Shown: positions 14,333 through 62,618 of the stretch, piece by piece | How positions within the stretch are numbered: the stretch's first letter is position 1 | How the letters are laid out: every line of letters starts with the position of its first letter | Translations under genes and position numbers: made by a program | Notes under the pieces: model-generated | Databases searched by the model: none | Seen by the model: only the letters and a program-made list of their open reading frames with translations | What the model was told of the DNA's origin: nothing | Source of the DNA: an uncultured delta proteobacterium | GTDB lineage: Bacteria; Desulfobacterota; Desulfobaccia; Desulfobaccales; 0-14-0-80-60-11 | Reading direction: 5' to 3' | DNA length: 64,000 nucleotides | Assembly: GCA_963812655.1 (NCBI GenBank) | Contig: CAWEWX010000039.1 | Span: 159,832 to 223,831 of the forward strand

Positions 14333-14392
14333 TTTTTCCGTTTTCCGTTTTCCGTTTTCTGCTTACTGCTTACTGCTTACTGCTCACTGGCT
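14333..14392. repeat. Tandem heptanucleotide arrays (TTTTCCG)n then (CTTACTG/CTCACTG)n
   Basis: Read directly: ttttccgttttccgttttccgttttctgcttactgcttactgcttactgctcactgg. Fills the gmhB/waaF spacer and overlaps the waaF stop. Confidence 0.9.
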
Positions 14393-15488
14393 CCGTGAGC
14401 CAGGGCCGGGCCGCGGACAAAACCTCTTCCACGCCGATGGCCGTCAGGCAGGCGTATCCCAGGCTGCAGGTGCGCCGCCAGCAAGGGCTGCAGGGCAGGG
14501 GCTGGCGCAGCACCGTGGCCCGGGGAGTAAAAGGCCCGGTGGCCGCCGGGTCGGTGGAGCCGAACAGGGCCACCAGGGGCACCCCCAGAGCGGCGGCGGC
14601 GTGCATCAGGCCCGAGTCGTTGGTGACCAGCAAGTTTAAGTGGCTCAAGACCGCCAGGGCCTGGCGCAAGTCGGTTTTGCCCGCCAGGTCTAGAACCGGC
14701 AGGCCCAACTGCGCCTTTACCAGGTTGGCCACCGGGGCCTCTCCCGGCCCGCCCAGCAGCACCAGGCGGGCCCCGAATTCTCGGGCCAATTCCCTTCCCA
14801 AGGCGGCGAACCGCTCCGGCGGCCAGCGTTTGGCCGGGCCGTAGGCCGCGCCGGGGCTCAAGCCCACCCAGGGGCCGGAGCCGGAGCCGGTGGCTGCAAG
14901 CAACTTCGCCGCGGCCGCGGTCTCCTCTTCCCGCAGGAAAAGGGCGGGGGGCGTGAAGGCCTCCACCTCGCCCAGGGTCTGCAGCAGGCCCAAATAATAG
15001 AAGACCGTGTGCAGCCCGGCCAGGCGCCGCCGCCCGGAGACCGCCGGGTTAAGGAGAGGACTCCGGCCGTCGGCGGCATAGCCCAGCCGCACCGGAGCTC
15101 GCAGCAACCAGAGCCCCAGGGCCGATTCCAGGGAATTGGCCAGGGTTACGGCCAGGTGAAAACGCCCTCGCAGGCCCCAGAGAACCCGCCATTTTTCCCG
15201 GTCGGCGGGGTACGTGATGACCTGCGCCACCCCGGGCAGCCCCAGGAACAGGGGGGATACCCGCCGGGCCGCCAATACCGTGATCTCCGCCTGGGGAAAG
15301 AGGCTGCTTAACCCGGAGAGCACCGGCAGGCTCATGACCGCGTCCCCCACCCAGTTGGGGGTGCGCACCAGGAGGCGGGGCGCCGGCCCCGGGACCGGGG
15401 GAAATTTCCGCACCGGCCGCAGCCGTTGAAAGCGCTGCTTCACCTCCGGGGGCAGGGGCTGTTCTTTAGACTGATAAGGATAATTCAT
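14370..15488 (-). CDS. waaF: LPS heptosyltransferase II-like (GT9)
   Basis: LLVRTPNWVGDAVMSLPVL matches the WaaF-type N-terminus (SWVGDMMMS in E. coli). C-terminal TNDSGLMHAAAALG. I chose ATG 15488 (MNYPYQ) over the longer ORF start at 15557; the start is uncertain. Confidence 0.8.
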   Translation of the reverse strand: MNYPYQSKEQPLPPEVKQRFQRLRPVRKFPPVPGPAPRLLVRTPNWVGDAVMSLPVLSGLSSLFPQAEITVLAARRVSPLFLGLPGVAQVITYPADREKWRVLWGLRGRFHLAVTLANSLESALGLWLLRAPVRLGYAADGRSPLLNPAVSGRRRLAGLHTVFYYLGLLQTLGEVEAFTPPALFLREEETAAAAKLLAATGSGSGPWVGLSPGAAYGPAKRWPPERFAALGRELAREFGARLVLLGGPGEAPVANLVKAQLGLPVLDLAGKTDLRQALAVLSHLNLLVTNDSGLMHAAAALGVPLVALFGSTDPAATGPFTPRATVLRQPLPCSPCWRRTCSLGYACLTAIGVEEVLSAARPWLTEPVSSKQ

Positions 15489-15709
15489 TATTCCTGAGGC
15501 AGGCCCGGCCCGCCCGGTCGGGGGTGGAGGCCCCCGCCGGAAGCACGGCCGGGGCATCGGGCCCAGCGGTAATCGAGGGCGTGCCGGTCACCCCGAATAT
15601 TTTGTTATTTTTGTTATATCGATTATTTACTTAAACCTAACAAACAATGGATTACTATGGTTGATTAAAATGCAATCAATGCCCATTTGCAAACAGGGGC
15701 CCGACTTAA

Positions 15710-15817
15710 CTCCCTCCCCCTGGAGGGGGGAGGGTCGGGGAGGGGGTGGCGTGATCTTGATCTGCAGCGGATATTCGCCACCCTCCCCCTAACCCCCTCC
15801 CCTCAAGGGAGGGGGAA
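15710..15817. repeat. Composite G/C-run inverted-repeat element, copy 2
   Basis: CTCCCTCCCCCTGGAGGGGGGAGGGTCGGGGAGGGGGTGGCG ...spacer... CGCCACCCTCCCCCTAACCCCCTCCCCTCAAGGGAGGGGGA. Same architecture as 4046..4168. Confidence 0.8.
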
Positions 15818-16080
15818 CTTTAATGCCTCGGTCCGGGTGCATTTTTCATCGTTTTGCTTTTACCCTTTTTAGGGGCGGCCATCTGCGGCCTTTAACTGGT
15901 TTCCAGGTTGACCTTGGGAACCGGGTGCCTTGCCCCGCCAGGTAACCGCCGCGGATCGCGATAACCGGGCTATTTCAGAGTACCGATTATTATCGCTCCA
16001 GGGTGTAGGGGCGCCCCGCTGGGTCGCCCTTATTCCAGCTATTTTTAGGTTTCTCTAATCATTATCGCATGAGGGGCAGG

Positions 16081-17187
16081 TTAAAGGAACTCCAGTAGCT
16101 CCATAATTCTCTCCGGCTGGCTGATTTGGGCCTCCACCTCCAGGACCCATAAGGGCATGGTCTGATCCCAGCGTTCAGCCAGGCGGGCCCAATCCTTGGC
16201 GGTGGTGACCAGGGCCGAGGCCCCGGCGGTTTCCGCCTCCCGCGCCAGGGCCGCCAATTCCGCGGGCTGGAAGGGGTGATGGTCCGGAAAGACCCGGAAG
16301 CCCCGGAGCCGCACCCCCAACTCTTCCAGGGTTCGGCGGAAGACCTGCGGCCGGGCCAGGGCGGCGAAGGCCAGCAGGGCTTGATTTTTCAGGACGGTGG
16401 GAGGCTCCGGCGGGCCGGCGGGCGCGAGGCGGACCGCGGCGGGGGTGATGCTGGCCGTCAGCACGGTTTTCTCGGGAAAGCCGCGTTGCAGGTCCGCCAG
16501 GGTGCGGCGGTCCCGGTCCTCCTGAAAGCGGGTGAGGATGAGCACCTGGGCCGCGGTTTTTTTGGTAAGCGCGGCCCGGGGCTCCCGCAGACTGCCCCGG
16601 GGCAGCAGCCAGCCGTTGCCGAAGGGGGCGGCCGCGTCCAGCAGCACGATGTCCAGGTCCCGGTGTAGCTGAAAATGCTGGAAGCCGTCGTCCAGCAGGA
16701 ACAGGTCCGGCCGGACCTGTTCCCAGGCGGCCAGGCCCGCGGCATAACGGGAGGCCCCGGTGTAGACCGCGGCCCCGGGGAGGGTCAGGGCCAGCCAGTA
16801 GGCCTCTTCGCCCGCCTGCGGCGGTTTTTGGTAAATCTGCCGGCCGTCGGAGATGCAGGCGACCCCCTGGTTTTGGCCGCCGTAACCCCGGCTGAGAATG
16901 GCCACCTTGCGGCCCTGAGCCTGAAACAGACGGGTCAGGCAGGCGGTTACCGGGGTCTTGCCGGTGCCGCCCACGGTGAGGTTGCCGACGCTCACCACCG
17001 GGGCCGGCAGACGCCTGGCCCGGAGAATGGACCCGGCATAGAGAGCCCGCCGCATCCGGGCCCCCAGGCCATAGAGCGCGGCCAGCCCCCCGGCCATCGC
17101 GGCCAGGGAACACCTGGGCGCCGGGGCCTCCTCCCCTGCCTGGAGACTATCGAAGAGGCGGTGGAAGTAAGGGTGCATGGTCGGCAC
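16081..17187 (-). CDS. lpxK: Tetraacyldisaccharide 4'-kinase
   Basis: P-loop context VVSVGNLTVGGTGKTPV is diagnostic of LpxK. Length and context fit. Confidence 0.9.
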   Translation of the reverse strand: MPTMHPYFHRLFDSLQAGEEAPAPRCSLAAMAGGLAALYGLGARMRRALYAGSILRARRLPAPVVSVGNLTVGGTGKTPVTACLTRLFQAQGRKVAILSRGYGGQNQGVACISDGRQIYQKPPQAGEEAYWLALTLPGAAVYTGASRYAAGLAAWEQVRPDLFLLDDGFQHFQLHRDLDIVLLDAAAPFGNGWLLPRGSLREPRAALTKKTAAQVLILTRFQEDRDRRTLADLQRGFPEKTVLTASITPAAVRLAPAGPPEPPTVLKNQALLAFAALARPQVFRRTLEELGVRLRGFRVFPDHHPFQPAELAALAREAETAGASALVTTAKDWARLAERWDQTMPLWVLEVEAQISQPERIMELLEFL

Positions 17188-17217
17188 TACTTGTGATTAT
17201 TCACGATTATTACTAAT

Positions 17218-20958: not shown

Positions 20959-21903
20959 ATGGTAATGGTCATTTTTTCCTTGCTGATGGCCCTGTGGCTC
21001 TGGCCCGGGGGACTGGGGGCCGGCCTGGTGGCGGCCCCGCCCCCGGCGCCACCCGGCGACACGGTGCGCTTTCCCTACTTCCGGGTGCCGGAAGGCGTCT
21101 ATCTCTGCGGTGAGCCCGTGCCTCTGGACGATCCCGCAGTCAGAGAGGACCTGGACCGGGAATTGACCATCGACATCTGGAGCCGGGCCCAGACCACCAT
21201 GTGGATCAAGCGGGCCCACCGCTACCTGCCGGAGGTGGAAGAGAAGCTCCGGTCCCGGCGGCTGCCCCTGGACCTGCAATACGTGGCCATCATCGAAAGC
21301 GACCTGCGCCCCACGGCCAGGTCCTCCGTGGGCGCCACGGGTCCCTGGCAGTTCATGGCTCCCACCGCCCAGCGCTTTCAGTTGACTTGCAACCAGGCCG
21401 TGGACGAACGCCTCGATTTTGGCGCGGCCACCGACGCGGCGCTCTCCTATTTGCAGCGCCTTTACCAGATCTTCCACGACTGGCCCCTGGCCCTGGCGGC
21501 CTATAACTGCGGGGAAGCCCGGGTGCAGAAAGAGATGGCCATCCAGGGGGTGAACTCCTTTTACCGCCTGAGCCTGCCGGAGGAGACGGAGCGCTACGTC
21601 CACCGCCTGCTGGCGGCCAAGATCGTCCTGGAGGACCCGGCCCGCTACGGTTACGATATTCCCGCGGACCAGCTCTACCCGCCCCTGGCCTCTGACGAGG
21701 TCAGCATCACCCTGGCGAAGGCCCTTACGGTGCGGCGCCTGGCAGAGGCCTGCGGCAGTTATTACAAGGCCCTCAAGACCCTGAACCCCTGGATCAAAGG
21801 GGCGGAGCTGCCGCCCGGGAGCTACCGCCTCAATCTCCCCAAGGGTTCGGCGAGCCGCTTCCAGGAGGCCTGGCGGCGCGGATTGGTTAGCAGTGAGCAG
21901 TGA
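20959..21903 (+). CDS. Lytic transglycosylase (SLT domain)
   Basis: AIIESDLRP (catalytic Glu-Ser), GATGPWQFM, and AAYNCGEARV are SLT motifs. Hydrophobic N-terminus. Confidence 0.8.
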   Translation: MVMVIFSLLMALWLWPGGLGAGLVAAPPPAPPGDTVRFPYFRVPEGVYLCGEPVPLDDPAVREDLDRELTIDIWSRAQTTMWIKRAHRYLPEVEEKLRSRRLPLDLQYVAIIESDLRPTARSSVGATGPWQFMAPTAQRFQLTCNQAVDERLDFGAATDAALSYLQRLYQIFHDWPLALAAYNCGEARVQKEMAIQGVNSFYRLSLPEETERYVHRLLAAKIVLEDPARYGYDIPADQLYPPLASDEVSITLAKALTVRRLAEACGSYYKALKTLNPWIKGAELPPGSYRLNLPKGSASRFQEAWRRGLVSSEQ

Positions 21904-21927
21904 GCAGTAAGCAGTGAGCAGTGAGCG
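21888..21927. repeat. Tandem heptanucleotide array (CAGTGAG/CAGTAAG)n
   Basis: ttagcagtgagcagtgagcagtaagcagtgagcagtgagc. Overlaps the stop codon of the transglycosylase gene. Confidence 0.9.
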
Positions 21928-23445: not shown

Positions 23446-23575
23446 AGGCGGTTTGCTGTTTTCTGTAAAGTCAAAGGCAAAATCAAAGTCATAGGCGTTT
23501 TAGCAGAGACAGAAAACAGAAGACAGAAGACAGGTCTAATATGGGGCGGGAGCGGCCGATTAGCCGTTGGCGGCC

Positions 23576-25245: not shown

Positions 25246-25379
25246 ACAGAATCTCACGCCGAGGCGCCAGGGATAAGAGTTCAAAGTCCAAAAGCTCAAA
25301 GATGGGGATGTTGTCAACCTTAAACCTTGAATCTTGAACTTCTGTTCATCCCCCCATTTTTCCCTTGCTGTCAGCTTCC

Positions 25380-28503: not shown

Positions 28504-28640
28504 AGAAAGATGTTGGTAGGGCGGGCCTCCGTGCCCGCCTTTCTAGCCTAAGACCGCACAGGCTGGAAAGCCTGGGCTGCCAGATACCTTTGAGAAGCAG
28601 GCGGAAGATGGTGGGCACTGCCCACCCTACAGGTTTTACT

Positions 28641-28683
28641 CAAAACTCGAAACTTGAAACTCGAAACTCGAAGCTTGAAACTC
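28641..28683. repeat. Tandem heptanucleotide array (AAACTCG/AAACTTG)n
   Basis: caaaactcgaaacttgaaactcgaaactcgaagcttgaaactca, abutting the ruvA stop. Confidence 0.85.
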
Positions 28684-33385: not shown

Positions 33386-35140
33386 ATGCTTTCCACCAAC
33401 CGGAAGGGAAAAGTTTTGGTCAGACCCGAGGGGAGGCTGGCGCGGCGGCTGCGAGTAGCCCGGGGGGAGGCCCCGGCGGACCTGGTGCTGGCCGGGGGGC
33501 AGGTTGCCGACCTCTACCGCGGCTGCTGGCAAAGAATTGACGTGGCCCTGTTCGACGGGATCATCGCGGGGCTGGGCGATTACGACGGCCCCAGAATGGA
33601 GGTCCGGGGCAGCTATATCCTGCCCGGGCTCATCGACGGCCACCTCCACCCGGAAAGCAGCATGCTCACCCCCCGGGAACTGACCCGGGCCCTGCTGCCC
33701 CTGGGAACCACCACGGTGGTGGCGGACCCCCATGAAATCGCCAACGTCTGGGGCACCGCGGGCCTGGACTACCTGCTGGCCGCCAGCCGGGGGCTGCCCC
33801 TGGATTTCTTCTTCATGCTGCCGTCCTGCGTCCCCGCCTCCCCCCTGGAAACCGCCGGGGCGGTGCTTACCGCCGACCTCCTGGGTGCTTACCGCCGGCA
33901 CCCCCGGGTCTTGGGCCTGGCCGAGGTCATGAATTTTCCCGGGGTGGTGAGCGGCGAGGCCGACCTGCTCAAGAAGCTGGCCCTCTTCCCCCGGGGTCCG
34001 GTGGACGGCCATGCGCCGCTGCTGTCCGGCAAGGCTCTCTCGGCCTATCGGCTGGCCGGGATCGGCTCCGACCACGAATGCACCCAACTCGACGAGGCCC
34101 GGGAAAAGCTAAGTCTCGGTTTCTACCTGATGCTGCGGGAAGGGAGCCTGGCCAAAAATCTGCAGGACCTGTTGCCCGCGGTGACTGCCGCCAGCCTGCG
34201 CCGCGCCATGCTGGTCACCGATGACTGCCACCCGGAGGACCTGCTTAAGGGCCATCTGAACGCCCTGCTGGAAAAGGCGGTGTCTCTGGGGTGCGATCCC
34301 CTCCAGGCGGTCACTATGGCCACCTTGAACCCGGCGGAATACTTCCGCCTGGGGGACCGGGGGGGGCTGGCCCCGGGGTTGCAGGGCGATCTGCTGGTGG
34401 TGGGGGACCTCCAAGGGTTTCAGATCCAAAAGGTCTTTAAGAACGGCCGGCTGGTGGCGGAGGGCGGCGAGCTGCTGGCCGACCTGCCCTTTCAAGAGAC
34501 CGCGGTTCCCGCCAGCCCCTTTCGGGTGCGGGAGTTCCCCCTGGAGGCCTTGTCTCCCCGGGCGGCCGGCGACCTGGTCAAGGTCATCGGCCTCATTCCC
34601 GGCCAGCTCCTGACGGAGAAAAGGGTCCTGCCGGCCCCGGTGCAGGGAGGGCGGCTGGCGGCGGACCCCGGACCCGGACGAGACCTCCTGAAACTGGCGG
34701 TGGTGGAGCGCCACCACGGCAGCGGCAACCTGGGGTTGGGCCTGGTGCAGGGTTTCGGTATGCGCCGGGGCGCCCTGGCTTCCTCGGTGGCTCATGATTC
34801 CCATAATATCGTGGTGGTGGGGGCCCTGGAGAGCGACATGCTCCTGGCGGTGCGGCACCTCACGGCCCTGGGGGGCGGCCTGGTGGTGGTGGCCGCGGGC
34901 CAGGTGCTGGCGGAGCTGCCGCTCCCCATCGCCGGGTTGATGAGCCCCAGGCCTTTGGGGGAGGTGGCCGCGGCTTACAGTCGCCTAAAAACGGCCTATC
35001 GCGGCCTGGGCGGAATCCTGCCAGACCCCTTCATGGCCTTGTCCTTCCTGGCCCTGCCGGTGATCCCGGAACTGAAGCTCACCGACCTAGGCCTGGTGGA
35101 TGTCCAGCGTTTTCAGGTGGTGCCGCTCTTTGGAGAGTGA
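33386..35140 (+). CDS. ade: Adenine deaminase
   Basis: PGLIDGHLHPESSML, the downstream DGHAP and SDHE motifs, and a ~580-aa length fit Ade-type amidohydrolases. Confidence 0.85.
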   Translation: MLSTNRKGKVLVRPEGRLARRLRVARGEAPADLVLAGGQVADLYRGCWQRIDVALFDGIIAGLGDYDGPRMEVRGSYILPGLIDGHLHPESSMLTPRELTRALLPLGTTTVVADPHEIANVWGTAGLDYLLAASRGLPLDFFFMLPSCVPASPLETAGAVLTADLLGAYRRHPRVLGLAEVMNFPGVVSGEADLLKKLALFPRGPVDGHAPLLSGKALSAYRLAGIGSDHECTQLDEAREKLSLGFYLMLREGSLAKNLQDLLPAVTAASLRRAMLVTDDCHPEDLLKGHLNALLEKAVSLGCDPLQAVTMATLNPAEYFRLGDRGGLAPGLQGDLLVVGDLQGFQIQKVFKNGRLVAEGGELLADLPFQETAVPASPFRVREFPLEALSPRAAGDLVKVIGLIPGQLLTEKRVLPAPVQGGRLAADPGPGRDLLKLAVVERHHGSGNLGLGLVQGFGMRRGALASSVAHDSHNIVVVGALESDMLLAVRHLTALGGGLVVVAAGQVLAELPLPIAGLMSPRPLGEVAAAYSRLKTAYRGLGGILPDPFMALSFLALPVIPELKLTDLGLVDVQRFQVVPLFGE

Positions 35141-35175
35141 GCAGTGAGCAGTAGCCAGTAGCCAGTAGCCAGTAA
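35137..35175. repeat. Tandem heptanucleotide array (CAGTGAG then CAGTAGC)n
   Basis: tgagcagtgagcagtagccagtagccagtagccagtaa, starting at the ade stop codon. Confidence 0.9.
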
Positions 35176-48279: not shown

Positions 48280-50007
48280 ATGCAATTTTCCCGGATGCTG
48301 ATTCCCACCTTAAAAGAGACGCCTGCGGAAGCGGAGGCGATTTCCCACCAACTGCTGCTGCGGGCCGGGATGATCCGCAAGGTGGCCTCGGGCATCTACA
48401 ATTACCTGCCTCTGGGCCGGCGGGTTCTCGCCAAGGTGGAGCGGATCGTCCGGGAGGAGATGGACCGGGCCGGGGCCCTGGAGGTCTTGCTGCCCGCGGT
48501 GCAGCCCGCGGAGCTCTGGCAGGAGTCCGGCCGCTGGGCGGTGTATGGTAAGGAGCTGCTGCGCTTCCTGGATCGCCACGAGCGGGACTACTGCTTCGGG
48601 CCCACCCATGAAGAGGTGGTCACCGATCTGGTGCGCCGGGAGGTGCATTCCTACCGGCAGTTGCCCCTCAACCTCTACCAGATCCAGACCAAGTTCCGGG
48701 ACGAGATCCGGCCCCGCTTCGGACTGATCCGCTCCCGGGAATTCATCATGAAGGATGCTTACAGCTTCCACCCGGACGAAGCCGGGGCCGAGGCCTGCTA
48801 CCGGGAGATGTATCAGGCCTATGACCGCATTTTCCGGCGCTGCGGCCTCCGGTTCAAGGTGGTGGAGGCGGACTCCGGCCCCATCGGCGGCAGCTTCTCC
48901 CACGAATTCATGGTCCTGGCGGACACCGGCGAGGACCTGCTGGTCTCCTGCCAGGCCTGCGACTACGCCGCCAACCTGGAGAAGGCCGAGGTGCCCCTGG
49001 AGGCGGCGGCCCCCGGCCCCCCCGCGGGGGACCGGGAGCTGGTGGCCACCCCGGGGGTGCGCCGCGTTGAGGAGGTGGCCGGATTTTTAAAGGTTTCCCC
49101 CCGGGAGATCGTCAAAACCCTGATCTACGAGACTGAGCGGGGCCCGGTGGCGGTCCTCATCCGGGGCGACCACGAAGTCAACGAAGTGAAGGTGAAAAAT
49201 CTCCTGGGGGTCACCGACCTGGCCCTGGCTGGGCTGATCCGGGTTCAGGAGCTTACCGGGGCCGAGGCCGGCTTTGCCGGCCCGGTGGGCCTGACGATCC
49301 CCATCTACGCCGATCAGGCGGTGGCCCGCCTGGATTCCATGGTCACCGGGGCCAATCGGGATAATCACCACCTGCTGCGGGTCCATCCCCGGCGGGACCT
49401 GGAGATCGCCCAGGTGGCGGACCTGCGCCTGGTCACGGCCCAGGACCCCTGCCCCCGCTGCGGGGGGGCGCTGGCCCTAATGCGGGGCATCGAGGTGGGG
49501 CACATCTTTAAGCTGGGGGACAAATATTCCAGGGCCATGAAGGCCGTTTACCTGGACCAGGAAGGGGCCGAGCAGTATCTCTACATGGGCTGCTACGGCA
49601 TCGGGGTGAGCCGCATCGTGGCCGCGGCCATCGAGCAAGGCCACGACGCCCACGGCATCATCTTCCCCATGGCCCTGGCGCCGGTGCAGGTGGGCCTGAT
49701 CCCCATCTCTCTCACCGACGCCGCGGTGCGGGATTGCGCCTTTGAGCTGCACCGGGTGCTGACGGCCGCGGGCCTCGAAGTGCTCCTGGACGACCGGGAT
49801 GAGCGCCCCGGGGTGAAGTTCAAGGACTGCGATCTGCTGGGCATCCCCCTGCGAGTGGTCATCGGCTCCAAGACCCTGGAGAAGGGGCAGGCGGAAGTGA
49901 AGCAACGGGGACCCGAGCGGGAGCCGGAATTTGTCTCGATCCAAGATTTGCCCGATTACCTGAAACAGAGGATTGCCGAGCAGACTGATGGAAGTGAGAG
50001 GCCTTGA
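48280..50007 (+). CDS. proS: Proline--tRNA ligase (bacterial type with INS editing domain)
   Basis: [39 protein letters not shown], class II motifs, 575 aa. Confidence 0.95.
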
Positions 50008-50030
50008 ACCTTGAACTTTGAACTTTGAAC
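50003..50030. repeat. Tandem heptanucleotide array (TTGAACC/TTGAACT)n
   Basis: ttgaaccttgaactttgaactttgaacc occupies the whole proS-relA spacer and contains the proS stop codon. Confidence 0.9.
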
Positions 50031-50031
50031 C

Positions 50032-52188: not shown

Positions 52189-52203
52189 AAGAAGCGGTTA
52201 GCT

Positions 52204-52298
52204 ATCAGCTTTCAGCAGTCAGCTAAAAGCAAAAGCAAAGGCAGAAGCAAAACCAAGACGCCAAAACCAAAATCCAAAAGCTGATCGCTGAACGCTGA
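52204..52298. repeat. Inverted pair of heptamer arrays flanking A-rich 6-7-nt repeats between convergent relA and rpmB
   Basis: ATCAGCTTTCAGCAGTCAGCT (52204..52224) against AGCTGATCGCTGAACGCTGA (52279..52298), about 17 of 20 complementary by eye. Between them: aaaagcaaaagcaaaggcagaagcaaaaccaagacgccaaaaccaaaatccaaa. Confidence 0.8.
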
Positions 52299-52306
52299 AA
52301 CCTTTT

Positions 52307-54658: not shown

Positions 54659-54820
54659 TCCGGGGCCTCCATTGCCAACGGTTATTAAGGGCGACCCGAG
54701 CACAGGCTGGAAGCCTGTGCCATTGGCGCCCCTATAGCCAAACCGAGTTTTGAGATTAATTCCCCCTCACCCTAGCCCTCTCCCCCATCGGGGGAGAGGG
54801 GATAAAGAAGGAACTTAATG

Positions 54821-54884
54821 GCGGTCAGCTTTTTAGTTTTTAGTTTTCCCCTTAGCTGACTGCTGACCGCTGATAGCTGACCGC
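54821..54884. repeat. Inverted heptamer-array hairpin (GCGGTCAGCT ... AGCTGACCGC with GCTGACY repeats)
   Basis: Read directly in the spacer between the ThyA-like gene and purH. Confidence 0.75.
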
Positions 54885-54887
54885 TAC

Positions 54888-56177: not shown

Positions 56178-56552
56178 CCGCGGTGCCTCCGAAGAAAGTT
56201 TTCTGTTTTCCGTTTTCTGGGTGGGCGCCGCCAGAGGCCGCTCGGTTAGGGCTATCTGCGAGCGTTCCCTTTAACCACTTTAAAGATTAAAGGCAATTTC
56301 CTCTTGCGCCGGAGCCGACCGCAGGCGGGCAACCTTATTGTGCCATGGGAAGGCCTCCTTGACAAGCGACTTTGGGGCTCCCGGGAGAAATTGACAGGAG
56401 GCGGGAAGAATGCTAATATTTCAAGTGAGTTGTCGGTGAGGAGGCGCCAGCCGCCTCGCCGGCGGGAATCGCCGCGGGTAACGCTTCTGCGTGTTAAGAG
56501 GTCTTAATAGATGGGCGGCTAAGCATGAGAAAAACGTTTTTTGCGCTTACAA

Positions 56553-56586
56553 AAAACCGGAAACCGCAAACCGCAAACCGAAAACT
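56553..56586. repeat. Tandem heptanucleotide array (AAACCGG/AAACCGC/AAACCGA)n
   Basis: aaaaaaccggaaaccgcaaaccgcaaaccgaaaac, immediately 5' of the ATG at 56596. Confidence 0.85.
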
Positions 56587-56595
56587 GCCTTTAAC

Positions 56596-56862
56596 ATGGA
56601 GATCAAGACCTTGGATTTCTTGGTGGGGGTGAGCGTAGGGGCGATTCTGGGCGTGGGCCTGACCCTGGCCATCAGGAGCATTCGGGGCTGGCTGGGCTAC
56701 TCCGAAACCTCCCGGCTCAGGTCCGAAGTCCGCTCCCTGAAACGCCGCCTGGCGGAAAAAGACCGGCACATCGCCCGCATGCTCACCGAGACGGAGCGCC
56801 TGGCGGAGCGGCTGCAGGAGGCCAAGGTCCTGGAGCAGGTGGAAAAGAAGGGGCTGGATTGA
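56596..56862 (+). CDS. Small membrane-anchored coiled-coil protein, hypothetical
   Basis: One TM (FLVGVSVGAILGVGLTLAI), then a charged heptad-like helix. Confidence 0.5.
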   Translation: MEIKTLDFLVGVSVGAILGVGLTLAIRSIRGWLGYSETSRLRSEVRSLKRRLAEKDRHIARMLTETERLAERLQEAKVLEQVEKKGLD

Positions 56863-57013
56863 AGGAAGGTTGTGCCAAGGCTAAGGCGTAGGGCGCGTCT
56901 TCCGCGCCCTGCCGGTGCGGCGGGCGTCTCGCCCGCCACTCAGTCCGCACCGGTTTTTTTCGAGGGACGCTGGCACCACCAATTCTTCACAACTTTTCAA
57001 GGCAGGAGGACAG

Positions 57014-57337
57014 ATGGCCAGCAAGAAATTTTCCGTCAACGGGGCCGCGGTGGGCGGCCTGGCGGGGTGGGTGGCCGAAGTGGCCATTCAGGAGATCACC
57101 GGGCATCACATTACCAGCGGCATCCTGGAGCTGTTGGGCGCGGCGGCGGGGCTTTGCCGCCTGGACCGGCGGCTGGCCGCGGCCTTGCAAGACACCCTAA
57201 ATGAGGCCCGGGGCGAGGACCGGGAAGATTATCGCCAACTGAAGGAGCGTATCCGGGAACTCACCCGGGATCTCCCGGAGTTGCGGGAGATTCTGGACAA
57301 CCTGGTGGACGCCGGGCTCCAGGCCCAGAAGGCCTAA
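57014..57337 (+). CDS. Hypothetical protein
   Basis: ATG 57014 follows AGGAGGA. Glycine-zipper-like N-terminus, then a charged helix. Confidence 0.45.
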   Translation: MASKKFSVNGAAVGGLAGWVAEVAIQEITGHHITSGILELLGAAAGLCRLDRRLAAALQDTLNEARGEDREDYRQLKERIRELTRDLPELREILDNLVDAGLQAQKA

Positions 57338-57338
57338 G

Positions 57339-57770
57339 GTGTTAGGACTGAGCCTGCTGGTGCGCCTGGGCCGCCGGGTCCTGGCGGGCCCGGTAGCCGG
57401 GTCCGGGATTTTGCCCGCCTCCTATTACCGCCACCTGGCGCTGGCGGCCATGGAAGGAGAGGATTTTCCCGGGGCCCTGGATTATCTGCAATGGGTGAAG
57501 GACCCCCTGCTGGCCCAGCTCCTGGTGTTGCGCCTGCGCCTGCTGGCTGACCGCCACGGCCGCCGCCGCCAGGTCCTCTCGGAGCTGCTGCAGGAGGCCA
57601 GTGGCACAGGCTTCCAGCCTGTGTCTTGCACAGGCCAGAGGCCTGTGCCACTAGAGAAATATCAGGCCCTGCTGCTGGCGGAGGAGCGGGCCCTTAAGCT
57701 CCTCAGGGCATACGAAGCCCGGGCCCTGGGCCTGTTGAGCAAAGAAGCTAATCTTGCCAGGGCGGGGTGA
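57339..57770 (+). CDS. Hypothetical protein carrying in-frame REP units
   Basis: The GTG start lies 1 nt after the upstream stop. The helical sequence is interrupted by peptide GTGFQPVSCTGQRPVP, encoded by GGCACAGGC-type repeats (57598..57655). Confidence 0.35.
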   Translation: MLGLSLLVRLGRRVLAGPVAGSGILPASYYRHLALAAMEGEDFPGALDYLQWVKDPLLAQLLVLRLRLLADRHGRRRQVLSELLQEASGTGFQPVSCTGQRPVPLEKYQALLLAEERALKLLRAYEARALGLLSKEANLARAG

Positions 57771-58327
57771 CCCACCCCCGACCACCCCTGCTGCCGCCTG
57801 GGCGGCGGGTCAAGGGCATCTCCCGTTTGAGCCGATCTCTCCTGCCATCTCCGTCCAGGCAAACCGAGGCGCGGTTGGAAACAGATGATTATTACATGGG
57901 CCAGGCCCTGGACGCGGCAAGGCTCGCCCTGGCCGCGGGAGAGGTGCCGGTGGGCGCGGTGGTGGTGGGGGAGGGGGGTAAGATTCTGGGCCGGGCCTGC
58001 AACCAACCCATTGGGCTCCACGACCCCACGGGCCATGCCGAAGTGCTGGCGTTGCGGCAGGCCGCGGCCGCGGCCGGGAATTACCGATTGCCCGGGATGA
58101 CCCTTTATGTTACCATTGAGCCCTGCATCATGTGTCTGGGGGCCTTGTTACAGGCCCGGGTGGCCAGGGTGGTCTTTGGCGCCACGGACCCCAAGGGTGG
58201 GGCCTGCGTCTCCCTGTTCCGCTTGCCGGAAGATGAACGTTTAAACCATCGGATTGAGGTAACCGGCGGGGTGCGGGAGGCGGAGTGCCGGGAGCTGCTG
58301 CAGGAGTTTTTCCGGGCCCGGCGCTAG
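57767..58327 (+). CDS. tadA: tRNA adenosine(34) deaminase
   Basis: HAE (TGHAEVLAL) and PCxxC (EPCIMCLGAL) CDA zinc motifs. The true start may be internal (TTG 57875 or ATG 57896), since the first ~36 codons are low-complexity. Confidence 0.85.
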   Translation: MTHPRPPLLPPGRRVKGISRLSRSLLPSPSRQTEARLETDDYYMGQALDAARLALAAGEVPVGAVVVGEGGKILGRACNQPIGLHDPTGHAEVLALRQAAAAAGNYRLPGMTLYVTIEPCIMCLGALLQARVARVVFGATDPKGGACVSLFRLPEDERLNHRIEVTGGVREAECRELLQEFFRARR

Positions 58328-58408
58328 GTTTGCGCTTCAGATTTTCGTTTAATAGAATAATAAATTCTGCTCTTATAGTAGAACCGAAAACCGAAAACCG
58401 TCTTTTCA

Positions 58409-58502
58409 GGAGGGGTACCGAAGAGGCCGTAACGGGGTCGACTCGAAATCGACTTGGGGGCTAATCACTCCCACGTGGGTTCGAATCCCACCCCCTCCGC
58501 CA
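58409..58502 (+). tRNA. tRNA-Ser (anticodon CGA), CCA encoded
   Basis: Hand-folded. Acceptor GGAGGGG/CCCCTCC, anticodon stem GTCGA/TCGAC with loop CTCGAAA, long variable arm, T-arm GTGGG-TTCGAAT-CCCAC, then G-CCA. Confidence 0.9.
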
Positions 58503-58635
58503 GTAGTATAGTTGCCAGTGGTCAGTTGTCAGTAGTCAGTAGGATGGGTGGGCCTGGCCCGCCATTTAGGCTCACCACTTGCACAGCGCTTTTTATAACA
58601 GTTATACTTATAATAATACAGTATAGAATCTCTAG

Positions 58636-59319
58636 ATGGACGATGTTACTTTAAAAAGAAAAGCTCTATCCGGACTCGCCAAATTTCTGGTGATTTTGTG
58701 TATCCTGATATTTTTGCCCGCCTGGTCATTGGCATATTGGCAGGGGTGGGTTTTCTTTCTTACTTTTTCTATTTTCATGACTGTCTCCGGTCTTTACTTT
58801 CTTAAAAATGATCCGAAACTCGTGGAGACGCGGCTGAAGGCCGGACCGGCGGCTGAAAAAGAGAAGAGCCAAAAAATCATCATGGCATTCATGTATTTAT
58901 TCTTTATTACTCTAATGGTTTTCCCCGGATTAGACCATCATTTCGGCTGGTCGGAAGTACCGCCATATCTCGTTATCCTCGGGGACATCCTGGTGGTCTT
59001 GGGACTGTTCATATATTGTCTCGCCTTTAGAGAAAACAGCTATGCATCAGCCATTATTGAGGTAGGCAAAGAACAGCGGGTTATCTCAACCGGCCCCTAC
59101 GCGGTTATCCGTCATCCGGTTTACTCCGGAGCAATCATTATGCTATGGGGGATTCCGTTGGCGCTGGGTTCGTGGGGGGCATTTTATTTCGTCTTTCTGC
59201 TCCTAGCCGCAATCGTGTGGAGGCTGTTGGCTGAAGAAAAATTTTTAATAAAAAATTTGCCCGGCTATCAAAGCTACTGTCAGAAGATGCGTTATCGGTT
59301 AATTCCTTTAATTTGGTAA
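58636..59319 (+). CDS. Isoprenylcysteine carboxyl methyltransferase (ICMT/PEMT-like) family membrane protein
   Basis: Multi-TM, with the ICMT-type C-terminal motif ISTGPYAVIRHPVYSGAII...E..L. AT-richer than the backbone. Confidence 0.75.
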   Translation: MDDVTLKRKALSGLAKFLVILCILIFLPAWSLAYWQGWVFFLTFSIFMTVSGLYFLKNDPKLVETRLKAGPAAEKEKSQKIIMAFMYLFFITLMVFPGLDHHFGWSEVPPYLVILGDILVVLGLFIYCLAFRENSYASAIIEVGKEQRVISTGPYAVIRHPVYSGAIIMLWGIPLALGSWGAFYFVFLLLAAIVWRLLAEEKFLIKNLPGYQSYCQKMRYRLIPLIW

Positions 59320-59418
59320 AGATAAGGAAAAAATTGCCGCGCCAGAGCCAAAAGCAGTAGGATTTTATAAGTACCTGACGCGGTTAACTATTTGGCAACC
59401 AGGCGCCCAAAATTCACC

Positions 59419-59509
59419 GGAGAGATGCCCGAGAGGCTGAAGGGGCACGATTGGAAATCGTGTGAGCGCCTAAAACGCTCCGAGGGTTCGAATCCCTCTC
59501 TCTCCGCCA
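59419..59509 (+). tRNA. tRNA-Ser (anticodon GGA), CCA encoded
   Basis: Hand-folded. Acceptor GGAGAGA/TCTCTCC, anticodon stem CACGA/TCGTG with loop TTGGAAA, long variable arm, T-arm GAGGG-TTCGAAT-CCCTC, then G-CCA. Confidence 0.9.
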
Positions 59510-59519
59510 TTAAATACAG

Positions 59520-59673
59520 TTTTCGGTTTCCGGTTTCCGGTTTTCGGTAAGAGATCCTATTCTGTGGCTCTCTTGTGCCTGGAAAATCCTCTTATTGACA
59601 CAACTTATAAAAAAAGAGAAAAAGGTCCTAAACGGGTTTTTAACCGAAAACCGCTAACTGAAAACCGGAAACC
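59520..59673. repeat. Inverted pair of (TTTCGGT/TTTCCGG)n and (AAACCGN)n heptamer arrays bracketing the dnaX upstream region
   Basis: ttttcggtttccggtttccggttttcgg (59520..59547) against ccgaaaaccgctaactgaaaaccggaaacc (59644..59673). Confidence 0.8.
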
Positions 59674-59681
59674 CTCCTCTC

Positions 59682-61313
59682 ATGGCTTACCAGGTCCTGG
59701 CCCGGAAGTGGCGTCCCCAGACGTTTGAAGAGGTGGTGGGTCAGGAGCCCATCACCCGCACCCTGCAAAATGCCCTGGCGCAAGGCCGGGTGGCCCACGC
59801 CTTCCTGTTCAGCGGCCCCCGGGGGGTGGGCAAGACCTCGGTGGCCCGCATCCTGGCCAAGGCCCTTAACTGCGTGGCCGGCCCCACCCCGCACCCCGAC
59901 AACACCTGCGACATCTGCCGGGAGATCACCCTGGGCTCCTCCCTGGACGTGCTGGAAATCGACGGCGCTTCCAACCGGGGCATCGACGAGGTTCGGGATC
60001 TGCGGGAGAAGATCAAATATATGCCGGCCCGCGGCCAGTATAGGGTTTACATTATCGATGAAGTTCACATGCTCACCGATCCGGCCTTCAACGCCCTGTT
60101 GAAGACCCTGGAGGAGCCTCCGGCCCACGCGGTCTTCATCCTGGCCACCACCCACCCCCACAAGGTGCCAGCGACCATCCTCTCCCGCTGCCAGCGCTAC
60201 GATTTTCGCCGGCTGCCCACCGGGGTGATCCAGGCGCAGTTGGGGAAGCTGGCCGGCCAGGAAGGCTGGCGCATCGATCCCGAGGGCCTGGCCCTGTTGG
60301 CCCGGGCCGCGGAGGGAAGCCTCCGGGACGCCCAGGGTTTTCTGGACCAGGTGGTGACCTTTGGGGGCGAGGGGGTCACGGCCGCGGAAATCGCCCGCAT
60401 CCTGGGGGTGACGGACCGGGGGGCGCTGCTGGCCGCCCTGGGGGCCATTATTGACCGCAACGGGCCGCAGTTGCTGGCCCTGATTGACGAGCTCTACAAT
60501 CAAGGGCACGACCTGCGGCGTTTTTATGAAGACCTGGTGCTCTACGCCCGGCACTTGCTGCTGGCGGGGCTGCACCACGAGTCCCGGCACCTGGCCGCGG
60601 TGGCCGACTCGGAATGGGAGGCGCTCACCACCCTGGCCCGGCGGACCCCCGAGATTCATCTGCACAATCTGCTTACGGTGCTGCTCCAGGGTGAAGAAGA
60701 GCTGAAAAGGGCGGCCCAGCCCCGGCTCGTCTTGGAGGTGCTGCTCCTCAAGCTGATCCACCTGGAGCCGGTAATGCCACTGGCCTCCTGGCTGGCCCGG
60801 CTGGAGTCCCTGGAACAACGTCTGGAGGGCCGCGGCCCGGCGGCCCCGGAATCGCCGGACCGCCTGGAGGGCAGGGGGGTATCCGGGCCGGTCAGCGCGG
60901 CGCCACCGCCGCCTGAGGCGGCCGCCGCGCCGGCCCCGGAAGTCCCGGAGGCGGCGCCCCCGGCGGAGAACTGGCAGGCCTTCCTGCAATACGTCCGGGA
61001 GACGGAAGGCGGACCCCTGTATGGCAAGCTCTCCCAATGCCGCCTGTTGGGGATCGAGGATCATCGCCTCAAGGTGGCCCCGGGGCGCACCTGGAACGCG
61101 GTGGGCCGGGCCCATGAGGCCCGCTTGCAGGAGCTGGCCCGGGCCTTTTTCGGGGACCGCTGCGTCCTGGAAATCATGGCCCCCGAGGCCAGGACCCCGG
61201 GGAATAAGGCGGTGGCCGCCAGTGAAACCTTCAATATGACGGAACTCAAACAACAGGCCCTGGAAATCTTCGGGGGCGCCTTCATCTCCCCGGGGAAGGA
61301 GAAACCTGAGTAA
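59682..61313 (+). CDS. dnaX: DNA polymerase III subunits gamma/tau
   Basis: LARKWRPQTFEEVVGQE, Walker A GPRGVGKTS, Zn module C..C..C..C-like (NCV...CDIC) and SRC motif (ILSRCQ). Confidence 0.95.
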   Translation: MAYQVLARKWRPQTFEEVVGQEPITRTLQNALAQGRVAHAFLFSGPRGVGKTSVARILAKALNCVAGPTPHPDNTCDICREITLGSSLDVLEIDGASNRGIDEVRDLREKIKYMPARGQYRVYIIDEVHMLTDPAFNALLKTLEEPPAHAVFILATTHPHKVPATILSRCQRYDFRRLPTGVIQAQLGKLAGQEGWRIDPEGLALLARAAEGSLRDAQGFLDQVVTFGGEGVTAAEIARILGVTDRGALLAALGAIIDRNGPQLLALIDELYNQGHDLRRFYEDLVLYARHLLLAGLHHESRHLAAVADSEWEALTTLARRTPEIHLHNLLTVLLQGEEELKRAAQPRLVLEVLLLKLIHLEPVMPLASWLARLESLEQRLEGRGPAAPESPDRLEGRGVSGPVSAAPPPPEAAAAPAPEVPEAAPPAENWQAFLQYVRETEGGPLYGKLSQCRLLGIEDHRLKVAPGRTWNAVGRAHEARLQELARAFFGDRCVLEIMAPEARTPGNKAVAASETFNMTELKQQALEIFGGAFISPGKEKPE

Positions 61314-61621
61314 TGAATATTATGTCCATGATGAAGCAGGCCCAGAAACTGCAGGCCAAGATGGCGGAGATGCAGGCGGAGTTGGGCAACCGCACGGCCA
61401 CCGCCCAGGCCGGCGGCGGCATGGTGGAGGCCACGGTCAACGGCCGCCAGGAACTGCTGAGTCTGCGCATCGACCCGGAGGTGGCGAGCCCCGACGACGT
61501 GGAGATGCTCCAAGACCTGATCCTGGCCGCGGTGAACGAGGCCCTGAACCGCTCCCGGGAGATGATGGCCCAGGAGATGAGTAAGCTCACCGGGGGCATG
61601 CAGATACCGGGAATGTTTTGA
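61313..61621 (+). CDS. ybaB: YbaB/EbfC-family nucleoid-associated protein
   Basis: MMKQAQKLQAKM.EMQ.EL......A.AGGGMVEATVNG. Canonical dnaX-ybaB-recR synteny. Confidence 0.9.
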   Translation: MNIMSMMKQAQKLQAKMAEMQAELGNRTATAQAGGGMVEATVNGRQELLSLRIDPEVASPDDVEMLQDLILAAVNEALNRSREMMAQEMSKLTGGMQIPGMF

Positions 61622-61690
61622 GAGTGAGCAGCGAACAGTGAGCAGTGAGCAGTAAGCAGTAACCAGTAAGCTTTTCTGCTCACTGCTCAC
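61622..61690. repeat. Heptamer array (CAGTGAG/CAGTAAG)n folding back on CTGCTCACTGCTCAC (terminator-like hairpin)
   Basis: gagtgagcagcgaacagtgagcagtgagcagtaagcagtaaccagtaagcttttctgctcactgctcac. The 3' segment is the reverse complement of array units. Confidence 0.8.
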
Positions 61691-61700
61691 AGGAGTAAAA

Positions 61701-62306
61701 ATGTCAGGAAACGCTTATCCCGCAGCCTTGCGGCGGGTGATCCAGGCAATCGGCAAGTGGCCGGGGGTGGGGGAGAAGACCGCGGCCCGCATGGCCCTGC
61801 ACCTGCTGCGGGTCCCCCGGGCGGAGGTTCTGGAGTTGGCCCAGGCCCTGTTGGAGCTCAAGGAGAAGATCCAGCTCTGCCGGCGGTGTTATGCCTTCGC
61901 GGACCAGGAGCTTTGTCCCATCTGCGCTGATCCGGCCCGCCGCCCCGGGCAGCTTTTGGTGGTGGCCGAGCCCGGCGATCTGCTGGCCATCGAGAAGGTG
62001 GGCTGGTACCAGGGGAGCTATCATGTCCTGGGCGGCCTCATCACTCCCCTGGAAGGGGTGGCCCCTGATGACTTGCGGATCCGGGAGCTGCTGGCGCGGA
62101 TCCGGGCCGAAGCGGTGCAGGAGGTGATCCTGGCCCTCAACCCCTCTCTCGAAGGAGAGACCACCACCGCCTACCTGGCCATGGAACTGAAGCCCTTGGG
62201 CGTCAAGGTGACTCGCATCGCCTACGGTTTGCCCATGGGCGGTGAGATCAAGTACGCCGACCGGCAGACCCTGAAGGAGTCCCTGAGCCATCGGGTGGAG
62301 GCCTGA
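61701..62306 (+). CDS. recR: Recombination protein RecR
   Basis: LPGVG.K.A.R.A..LL (HhH), C4 zinc finger C..C....C.IC, and Toprim domain. Confidence 0.95.
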   Translation: MSGNAYPAALRRVIQAIGKWPGVGEKTAARMALHLLRVPRAEVLELAQALLELKEKIQLCRRCYAFADQELCPICADPARRPGQLLVVAEPGDLLAIEKVGWYQGSYHVLGGLITPLEGVAPDDLRIRELLARIRAEAVQEVILALNPSLEGETTTAYLAMELKPLGVKVTRIAYGLPMGGEIKYADRQTLKESLSHRVEA

Positions 62307-62308
62307 GG

Positions 62309-62345
62309 AGTAGTCAGTAGTCAGTAGTCAGTTGTCAGTTAGCCA
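62309..62345. repeat. Tandem heptanucleotide array (CAGTAGT/CAGTTGT)n
   Basis: gtagtcagtagtcagtagtcagttgtcagttagcc, directly after the recR stop. Confidence 0.9.
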
Positions 62346-62580
62346 ACAGGTTAGCTCACCTTTATTTCTTAAGGGAAAAAATACATAAGGCAGCCTATTT
62401 GGTTTTCTATATTTTGTTGACGATCCAACTCATATCCCTACTTCCCAGGAAGCCTGGAATTCCGCCCTGGAACTTCAAAAGAAACGGATGGGACGTTCTG
62501 CCGGAAGTCTAAGGCACTGGGTGAGCATTGATCTTTTCATCAATACTTCCGACATAATTGAACTCTCTGAAACCTCTTAC

Positions 62581-62618
62581 CTCTTACTGGCTACTGGCTA
62601 CTGACTACTGGCTACTAA
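62581..62618. repeat. Tandem heptanucleotide array (CTACTGG/CTACTGA)n, inverse orientation to 62309..62345
   Basis: ctcttactggctactggctactgactactggctactaa, ending 3 nt before the rodA ATG. Confidence 0.9.

Follow-up and report, generated by a model that had tools for sequence, protein, structure and literature searches.

Tandem arrays of seven-nucleotide units recur in the intergenic spacers of a stretch of 64,000 nucleotides from an uncultured bacterium of the phylum Desulfobacterota (hereafter the window), which corresponds to positions 159832-223831 of contig C39 in G000, a metagenome-assembled genome of 3.58 Mb with a GC content of 59%. Its pyruvate phosphate dikinase gene, with 91-94% identity to several Desulfobaccales MAGs, assigns the genome to the order Desulfobaccales (Thermodesulfobacteriota). 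The genes flanking these arrays are housekeeping genes, including dnaX, recR, rodA, proS, relA, purH, ruvA and tRNA genes, and the arrays lie outside the open reading frames (ORFs), save for the overlaps with some ORF ends described below. Besides two tRNA-Ser genes, no Rfam family was found in the window, and exact-protein look-ups with RecR and with the HAD-family phosphatase encoded at 13772-14332 gave no match. The arrays are interpreted here as arms, or remnants of arms, of hairpin-type intergenic insertion elements composed of heptamer simple sequence repeats (SSRs), the gene-bearing copies of which encode proteins of the PF05635 family; on balance, this interpretation is considered probable, with modest confidence. 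Whole elements come and go between species, give way to others or become inverted internally, and their arms grow and shrink in 7-base steps and drift in unit while staying complementary to each other. Full-size copies hold in the loop a gene for a PF05635 protein (23S-rRNA intervening sequence (IVS) protein, or Avd-like four-helix bundle), and the flavour of the arms tracks the protein subfamily.

Heptamer arrays in the window and across the genome

Arrays were identified with Tandem Repeats Finder (TRF). An earlier note on this DNA had placed heptamer arrays in almost every intergenic spacer and sorted them into two flavours, CAGTRAG-like and A-rich. TRF returned period-7 arrays at every strong position named in that note, as well as at most loose positions (4211, 8813, 23507, 25316, 52567 and 56198); the site near 11461 was missed by TRF and is seen by eye to be a mini inverted pair of 2+2 units (GTTTTCC GTTTTCG ... 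CGAAAAC CGAAAAC, 11461..11505), the matching spacer of genome G008 holding CTGTTTT x5.4 ... ACAGAAA x3.6. Over the whole genome, at a TRF score of at least 40, period 7 accounts for 255 arrays, whereas period 6 has 18 and period 8 has 29; periods 14 and 21 show up as multiples of 7, and the autocorrelation of spacer DNA peaks at 7, 14, 21 and 28. A genome-wide scan, the check that the note had proposed, places the enrichment of period 7 in spacers far above chance, with 77 exact arrays of at least three copies against none in dinucleotide-preserving shuffles and no more than two for each of the periods 5, 6 and 8-11. At a score of at least 36, 281 of 339 arrays fall within the approximately 15% of the genome that is non-coding by a crude ORF map.

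Both the reach and the uniformity of the arrays had been overstated, as an array is carried by about 22 of the 50 spacers of the window and by 278 of 2698 spacers genome-wide (10.3%), and the supposed two flavours are in fact 69 canonical units that form a continuum with the outward-reading consensus C-A/G-G-T-T/A-N-N (GT-type; the complement is termed AC-type). The main units, AAAACCG, AAAGTTC, ACTGCTC, ACTGGCT and ACTACTG, contain no G-tracts, which are present only in the minor families AGGGGTT and AGGGATT. Such a mutational continuum of flavours, together with array lengths that decay roughly geometrically above about 4.6 units, favours the main rival explanation, namely that the arrays are a by-product of 7-base slippage and intrastrand template switching (quasi-palindrome correction), with selection only purging harmful arrays and PF05635 genes being unrelated selfish passengers. 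In view of the arm order and the gene-bearing copies discussed below, this explanation appears rather unlikely.

Proceeding along the window, (CCGTCTT)x2.7 (3113..3131, plus strand) follows the stop of the gene at 1409-3100 by 12 nt and is GT-type outward, (AACAGAA)x2.4 (4211..4227, minus strand) lies 5 nt from the stop of the minus-strand gene at 4233-4976 and is GT-type on the minus strand, and (AACCAAA)x3.7 (8813..8838, minus strand) lies 6 nt from the stop of the minus-strand heptosyltransferase gene at 8845-9909. The start of the minus-strand HAD-family phosphatase gene (13772-14332; gmhB in the earlier note) is adjoined by (TTTTCCG)x3.7 (14334..14359, plus strand), whereas (CTGCTTA)x4.4, equivalent to (CAGTAAG)n on the minus strand (14359..14389, minus strand), overlaps the minus-strand GT9 heptosyltransferase gene at 14370-15557 and supplies its stop codon. 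An array of (AGCAGTG)x5.4 (21889..21926, plus strand) extends over the last codons and the stop (21903) of an SLT transglycosylase gene and comprises 7.3 units in G008. The convergent spacer at 23455..23533 contains a pair with CTGTTTT x~2 on the left and (AGACAGA)x3.9 on the right (23507-23533). Upstream of (AACCTTG)x3.4 (25316..25339, minus strand), a degenerate GTTCAAA-type partner is found at about 25275-25300, and the G008 counterpart is a full pair, GTTCAAA x7.4 ... AACTTTG x3.7. The stop of the minus-strand ruvA gene (28682-29266) adjoins (ACTCGAA)x6.6 (28638..28683, minus strand).

Further along, (AGTGAGC)x2.4 followed by (CAGTAGC)x3.7 (35136..35174, plus strand) begins inside the stop codon of the adenine deaminase gene (33386-35140), and (CCTTGAA)x4.3 (50002..50031, minus strand) occupies the entire 24-nt spacer between proS and relA and overlaps the proS stop. 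The convergent relA|rpmB spacer holds an inverted pair, (AGCTATC)x3.7 ... (GCTGAAC)x2.9 (52200..52299), the loop of which is a period-6 array, (AAAAGC)x9 at 52225-52281, one of the few spacer arrays with a period other than 7. At the stop of purH (54888-56177, minus strand), (GCTGACC)x4.4 (54855..54885, minus strand) lies 2 nt away and is preceded by (TTTTTAG)x2.6 at 54830-54847; at the other end of the gene, (GTTTTCT)x3.1 (56198..56219, plus strand) lies 20 nt from the purH start, at the left edge of a divergent spacer, and (AAACCGC)x4.6 (56554..56585, minus strand) stands 10 nt ahead of the start of the 56596 gene. The tRNA-Ser(cga) gene has (AACCGAA)x2.7 (58382..58400, minus strand) 8 nt on its 5' side and (AGTTGTC)x4.4 (58510..58540, plus strand) 7 nt on its 3' side. 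A matched inverted pair at 59519..59673 consists of (GTTTCCG)x4.3 (59519-59548), 9 nt 3' of tRNA-Ser(gga), and (AACCGAA)x4.6 (59642-59673), 8 nt before dnaX. Between the ybaB stop and the ribosome-binding site of recR lies the hairpin (TGAGCAG)x7.7-TTTT-(CTGCTCA)x2.1 (61619..61690), and inverted arrays of (AGTAGTC)x4.4 (62309-62339) and (TACTGGC)x4.6 (62585-62616) flank an AT-rich core in the recR|rodA spacer.

Placement, orientation and arm order

According to the earlier note, CAGTRAG-like arrays follow stops and A-rich arrays precede starts, each in the sense orientation, as a genome-wide spacer architecture with strand polarity relative to genes. Both placements are correct and the polarity is real, but a single rule, unrelated to the direction of transcription or translation, underlies them both. 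Polarity relative to transcription was rejected since each major family flips its orientation between start-adjacent and stop-adjacent positions; for AAAACCG, 12 arrays are in sense and none in antisense at starts, compared with 2 and 13, respectively, at stops. When units are read 5' to 3' outward from whichever gene or tRNA end is closest, GT-type units outnumber AC-type units 220 to 42 (p=3e-30), CAGT exceeds ACTG 95 to 10, and GTTT exceeds AAAC 85 to 14. This outward-GT rule holds at starts (64:3) and at stops (82:17), in tandem, convergent and divergent spacers alike, and at both ends of tRNA genes (7 of 7 cases), so that translation cannot be its general cause. Of the 29 non-coding arrays in the window, 25 conform to it, among them the array at 8813-8838, which the earlier note (8811..8842) had taken for an exception.

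The rule is matched by a fixed order of neighbouring arrays, which can be established without any gene calls: when two arrays lie less than 350 nt apart, a GT-arm is followed by an AC-arm in 59 cases and the opposite order is seen in 4, or 34 and 0 among pairs with matching units. Arrays that are a gene length apart show the reverse order (39 vs 16). Duplex partners are found on the predicted side, that is, downstream for 33% of GT-type arrays, with 0% on the other side, and upstream for 35% of AC-type arrays, with 3% on the other side. In 44% of two-armed spacers the left unit is the reverse complement of the right unit with at most one mismatch, compared with 13% in permuted spacers. The mutational by-product explanation accounts neither for the invariance of the arm order (59 vs 4) nor for the outward-GT rule. 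By contrast, an insertion element with a GT-type 5' arm (C-A/G-G-T-T/A-N-N), a loop or core and a complementary AC-type 3' arm would have the same anatomy on both strands, and would presumably have been inserted into gaps, once very short, that separated a stop codon or the end of a tRNA gene from the following ribosome-binding site. If such elements sit in tiny ancestral gaps, their outer ends abut gene ends, and the apparent polarity follows, with CAGTRAG or CGGTTTT behind stop codons and ACTGNNN or AAAACCG ahead of start codons.

The same organization extends to other members of the phylum. In a sample of 301 genomes, which includes related and therefore non-independent genomes and in which only CAGT- and TGAC-phased flavours were counted, CAGT-phased arrays of at least 3.5 units are present in 70 of the 301, at a chance expectation of about 0.002 per genome. 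Some lineages carry 80-200 CAGT-phased arrays and others are rich in the reversed, TGAC-phased pattern; at the loci sampled in these lineages, close pairs run GT-arm first and GT points outward in 23 cases vs 8, genome G289 being the exception. In G159, a multi-unit sequence, GTCATTAGTCAATAGTCATTTGTCA, and a fixed partner about 35 nt away are repeated at many loci; this recurrence resembles copies of one small dispersed hairpin element, unlike locally grown arrays.

The close fit of the arrays to gene ends can also be taken as a sign of selection by the host, with AC-type arrays serving as unstructured leaders, standby sites or translational enhancers before ribosome-binding sites, GT-type arrays as stabilizers in 3' untranslated regions (UTRs), fail-safe stops or terminators, and paired arms as couplers of cistrons. 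Arrays hug the edges of genes (26% lie within 3 nt of a gene end, compared with 6% for random placement), stop-adjacent arrays beginning at -3 to +8 of the stop and start-adjacent arrays ending 6-14 nt before the start. CAGTRAG units provide stop codons in each of the three frames. Genome-wide, about one in four stop-adjacent arrays (46 of approximately 184) overlaps the ORF end, so that the last codons and the stop come from the array; in the window this applies at 21889-21926, 14359-14389, 35136-35152 and 50002-50007. Co-directional spacers are enriched in arrays, whereas divergent spacers hold 6% of arrays vs 22% of spacer length (p=2e-14), and the array at 56554..56585 is probably part of a 5' UTR, because a promoter-like site lies upstream at 56391-56419. 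Comparable functions have been proposed for TAACTGA repeats (PMC4679880), and heptamers found in promoters and leaders of Nostoc had effects in reporter assays (bioRxiv 10.1101/2022.06.06.494920).

Nevertheless, host-selected RNA signalling appears distinctly unlikely as the explanation. The polarity and the edge hugging are also seen at both ends of tRNA genes, only 10% of spacers have arrays, unit, copy number and even presence vary among close relatives at housekeeping genes, and several families contain no stops or start-relevant features in either direction. Three-frame stop codons were discarded as a general cause of the polarity, being a property of the CAGT families only. The role in termination that the earlier note had considered is disfavoured, since terminator-like sites number 7 vs 8.6 expected in the region 56100-62700, and the 3' arm is of A/C type with no T-run after it. 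No asymmetry was detected in a comparison for strand-specific RNA stems by G.U wobble (21 vs 17, p=0.47); sense and antisense stems being equally stable, the G.U pairs are no evidence for strand-specific RNA selection. The lack of a sense/antisense difference in stem energy and the depletion in promoter-bearing divergent spacers are instead compatible with the mutational by-product explanation. Pairing of the 5' UTR with the 3' UTR of one mRNA, by arrays that bracket a gene, was rejected as well: of 17 genes that have an array on each side, no more than 2 have the exact same family on both. Integron attC sites, telomerase-like end addition, Rho rut sites, RNase E sites and Csp sites were weighed as analogies, and none fits all unit families. 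By analogy with the intervening sequences of 23S rRNA, the arms of the proposed elements would form long stems in transcripts near stops and ribosome-binding sites that are probably cut, for example by RNase III, or tolerated, and any effects on host expression would be side effects and not the cause of the arrays' existence.

Finally, the arrays could be scaffolds of double-stranded DNA for a host protein, with one heptad per subunit, that mark gene boundaries or organize the nucleoid. The omega repressor of pSM19035 binds heptad operator arrays of its plasmid in this manner, one heptad per subunit, and the strict 7-bp period and the orientation about a dyad are reminiscent of such operators. 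With 69 unit flavours in one genome, rapid replacement of units between relatives, depletion in promoter-rich divergent spacers and no candidate protein identified, this explanation is very improbable.

PF05635 genes within paired arrays

Six full-length PF05635 genes are present in G000, none of them in the window. The four that were scanned gave confident matches (E 1e-22 to 1e-41), two with weak bAvd-like matches, and the closest solved structure is XCC0516 of Xanthomonas campestris. Ordinary genes are bracketed in the order AC-arm, gene, GT-arm, whereas four of the six PF05635 genes show the reverse arrangement, inside GT-arm...AC-arm, a configuration found for just 14 among 3529 ORFs (p=2e-9); apart from PF05635, no cargo of GT...AC pairs recurs in G000. 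Among 19 PF05635 genes of four other lineages, 18 have heptamer arrays within 300 nt, 10 are clearly inside a pair, and none, whichever the gene strand, shows the arrangement of ordinary genes. Two further cases from metagenomes agree with placement inside the hairpin. In 19 of 22 gene-bearing elements the two arms agree with at most one mismatch, and all gene-bearing copies examined lie between protein-coding genes. Across the phylum sample, PF05635 is present in 44 of 47 array-rich genomes, compared with 127 of 254 others, and in 21 of 23 at the family level.

The unit of the arms is linked to the sequence of the enclosed gene. Across genomes, a unit is shared in 67% of pairs with PF05635 proteins at least 60% identical and in 2-7% of more distant pairs. 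Two copies in G000 that are 98% identical lie in unrelated neighbourhoods and have the same arms, as do two copies with 73.5% identity from separate families within the phylum; other similar pairs are at orthologous loci. The mutational by-product explanation does not account for the tracking of protein by flavour, for PF05635 as the sole recurring cargo or for a gene-bearing unit that appears with its arms in unrelated neighbourhoods.

A clean empty site is evidence that the gene-bearing unit moves. In G005, G019, G021 and G022 (the closest relative and three genomes of another family), the stop codon and the next ATG are separated by at most about 20 nt (TGAATAGGACAGTGGAGGAAACATG), whereas in five genomes the whole arm-gene-arm unit lies between the stop and the Shine-Dalgarno sequence. 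Depending on the species, another locus is occupied by the element itself, by a version with the gene turned round, by an ORF-less hairpin of a different flavour, by a palindrome similar to repetitive extragenic palindromic (REP) sequences, or by nothing. The PF05635 gene is flipped between unchanged arms in two species (L237 and L238, from G002 and G004, vs L231-L233), an outcome that recombination between inverted arrays would produce. In G000, at C43:32372-33261, a 200-nt unit comprising (CCAGTAG)n and the 3' part of a PF05635 gene occurs twice in tandem before the full-length gene, which suggests recombination at arrays.

Several other ORFs lie in well-matched GT...AC pairs of G000, namely C44:12638-12922 (94 aa, with an Mrr_N domain), C86:2240-5410 (1056 aa), C39:70344-71336 (330 aa) and C66:81208-81405 (65 aa); these may represent alternative cargo carried now and then, or genes that came to lie between two elements. 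A diversity-generating retroelement was considered as a context for the PF05635 genes and rejected, because the single reverse transcriptase of the genome is encoded on contig C10, away from all of them.

Two known systems resemble these elements. REP sequences and REPINs are short intergenic repeats, present in hundreds of copies and often arranged as inverted hairpin doublets near gene ends, and the REP-associated tyrosine transposase (RAYT) gene is flanked by inverted repeats, each subfamily having its own flavour. The elements of G000 share with them dispersed inverted repeats near gene ends, an enclosed cognate gene and one flavour per gene subfamily, and differ in that their arms are tandem heptamer arrays instead of single imperfect palindromes and the cargo is a PF05635 four-helix bundle with no known catalysis, not a Y1 transposase. 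By analogy, the PF05635 protein may recognize or help to maintain its cognate heptamer arms, much as is the case for REP sequences and the RAYT gene. Y1 transposases were rejected as partners of the arrays, since the Y1_Tnp matches of G000 are weak and located elsewhere, and the RAYT-like gene of a related metagenome contig (L216) has REP-like palindromes of its own. In L216 these palindromes, at 810-835 and 1331-1355, flank the Y1 transposase gene. A separate family of REP-like palindromes (GCACAGGCTGGAAGCCTGTGC, GTAGCCGCAGGCTTCAGCCTGCG) occurs in well over 100 spacers of G000, including the window positions 54690-54730 and 52719-52745. The second system is the IVS of 23S rRNA, in which a small PF05635 gene, whose product resembles Avd, likewise lies within inverted repeats that form a long stem, with insertion-like presence and absence (PMC10053308); unlike the IVS, which resides in 23S rRNA helices, elements of the G000 type are placed between protein or tRNA genes and have heptamer arrays for arms. 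No paper linking PF05635 with heptamer repeats was found in the literature that could be searched.

Variation between relatives and relation to known repeats

The variability suspected in the earlier note is supported, as slippage-type length variation, by whole-unit differences in copy number at orthologous arrays. G000 was compared with 400 kb of a complete chromosome of the same genus (154 orthologous spacers, flanking proteins approximately 88% identical). Arrays are common to 20 of these spacers, with approximately 6 expected (p=1e-9); in 14 of the 20 the units are within one mismatch of each other, and the copy number differs by -4 to +2.3 units. The ybaB|recR hairpin has 3.6 + 8.1 units in G008. 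In the recR|rodA spacer, (CAGTNNN)n immediately after recR and (ACTGNNN)n immediately before rodA are kept in the genus and in three other genera, and the core between these persistent arrays is replaced among relatives, with lengths of 170 to 1095 nt. The arms of the tRNA-Ser|dnaX pair co-vary among relatives as CGGTTTC/GAAACCG, GAGTTTC/GAAACTC, TTGGTTT/AAACCAA and GGTCAGC/GCTGAC. Clean insertions are also seen among ORF-less arrays, one spacer measuring 145 nt vs 29 nt for the empty site. Within the G000 bin, alleles of one site on two contigs have 4.6 vs 7.1 units and differ in their cores. Slippage and arm-to-arm homogenization could account for these dynamics.

Some further observations concern the same loci. 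In several relatives (L093 and L097-L100), the arrays of the recR|rodA spacer are separated by 750-1100 nt with inserted ORFs inside, and in L098 a second pair, GGTTTTC...GAAAACC, is nested within the CAGT...ACTG pair. Several G000 contigs (C8:7435-7579 vs C10:50345-50433; C11, C71 and C72) map to one locus of a complete relative with differing array alleles, which implies that the bin mixes strains and fits the contamination figure of 9.4%.

The free variation of copy number at orthologous arrays, with position kept, is in keeping with the mutational by-product explanation, as are the occurrence of some array-rich genomes with no PF05635 match and the idea of polymerase slippage, which Mrazek (2007), as related in PMC4679880, proposed on finding that heptanucleotides dominate long SSRs. 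Other points weigh against the interpretation of the arrays as arms of insertion elements. About two thirds of the arrays have no detectable partner; no conserved terminal sequence and no target-site duplication were recognized, the latter also not at the empty site of the gene-bearing element; the array-rich genomes G151, G270 and G262 lack a PF05635 match; and beyond the six genes of G000, remnants of PF05635 are found in only three fragments. The cores of ORF-less pairs do not constitute a conserved family, and their interpretation as miniature inverted-repeat transposable elements was not supported, given that 48% of cores match other spacers vs 38% for array-free spacers, by way of an unrelated REP-like repeat. 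Most ORF-less arrays have not been recently mobile, since many persist at orthologous gene ends and evolve in place. Moreover, the association of genes with arms could arise if the hairpins were there first and PF05635 genes either inserted into them or survived best within them. Under the insertion-element interpretation, the several hundred ORF-less arrays would be miniature or decayed relatives of the gene-bearing elements.

The earlier note knew of no described function for such arrays, and similar repeats have in fact been reported repeatedly (Rehm 2015, PMC4692102; MacGregor 2015, PMC4679880), including those of cyanobacteria. The G000 arrays belong to a known but unexplained class of heptamer repeats (long simple sequence repeats (LSSRs), or short tandemly repeated repetitive (STRR) sequences), as they consist of head-to-tail 7-nt units beyond chance, occupy dispersed intergenic loci and vary in length by whole units. 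The arrays of Xanthomonas (GGGAATC) and Nostoc (GGGGA[C/T]T) are about 90% intergenic and no function was found for them (Rehm 2015, PMC4692102); the ORF closest to a repeat is 5' of it in either ORF orientation, some arrays extend over stop codons or form convergent inverted pairs, fewer than expected stand between divergent genes, and positions are kept while length and sequence vary (PMC4692102). In G000 the same polarity, convergent inverted pairs, depletion between divergent genes, stop overlap and kept positions are found, but there are many flavours per genome and most units (CAGTNNN, CGGTTTT, AGTTCAA) cannot form G-quadruplexes; since most G000 units have no G-tracts, the shared polarity is not due to G-quadruplexes. 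That paper does not describe a link to PF05635, although X. campestris is the source of XCC0516.

TAACTGA repeats of marine Beggiatoaceae, cyanobacteria and Bacteroidetes, which occur in 2-6 copies, are mostly found a few nucleotides before starts, in the forward orientation and often with no canonical ribosome-binding site (MacGregor 2015, PMC4679880). They have an ACTG core in common with G000, the ACTG-type arrays of which are also in sense 6-14 nt upstream of starts, but they form a single unit with essentially no inverted partners ("one indirect repeat"), whereas G000 has many units, at both gene ends, with frequent inverted pairing. The TAACTGA unit is absent from the G000 families, and related CAGTTAN units are present; arrays of TAACTGA and TAACTGG do occur in G209, a distant Thermodesulfobacteriota genome (L158 and L138). 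In Geobacter metallireducens, which at the time counted as a related lineage of deltaproteobacteria, multicopy elements of four to five tandem heptanucleotides include some hairpin-like pairs (PMC2700814); compared by description, they differ from those of G000 in their units (GGACCGG, MTYCTGA), in being annotated as putative regulator sites or RNA elements and in occurring also within genes.

Cyanobacterial STRR units include CCCCAGT and CAACAGT. Like the arrays of G000, STRRs are dispersed intergenic tandem heptamers of several flavours, and these units share the CAGT core with G000; unlike the arrays of G000, they come from another phylum and consist of other units. A wider proposal is that STRR-type arrays, which have lacked an explanation since about 1990, act as cis-elements for a selfish or domesticated hairpin family of wide distribution, comparable to REP sequences and RAYT genes, the masters of which encode a PF05635/Avd-like nucleic-acid-binding protein that is not a transposase, with each subfamily recognizing its own flavour and the ORF-less arrays being non-autonomous offspring. 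This proposal is put forward tentatively, as a serious possibility that falls somewhat short of being probable.

Heptanucleotide arrays are among the most abundant unexplained repeats of several phyla (cyanobacteria, Xanthomonas, Beggiatoaceae, Bacteroidota). The present analysis extends the polarity that places an ORF on the 5' side, previously described for G-rich units, to non-quadruplex units and to tRNA genes; formation of G-quadruplexes and translation can therefore be dropped as general explanations, and the polarity can be recast as the fixed arm order of inserted hairpin elements. It also accounts, in genome annotation, for the array-derived C-terminal residues and stop codons of some genes. 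Its placement in hairpins, the tracking of subfamily by flavour and clear empty sites make PF05635 a concrete candidate partner of the arrays that is open to biochemical tests.

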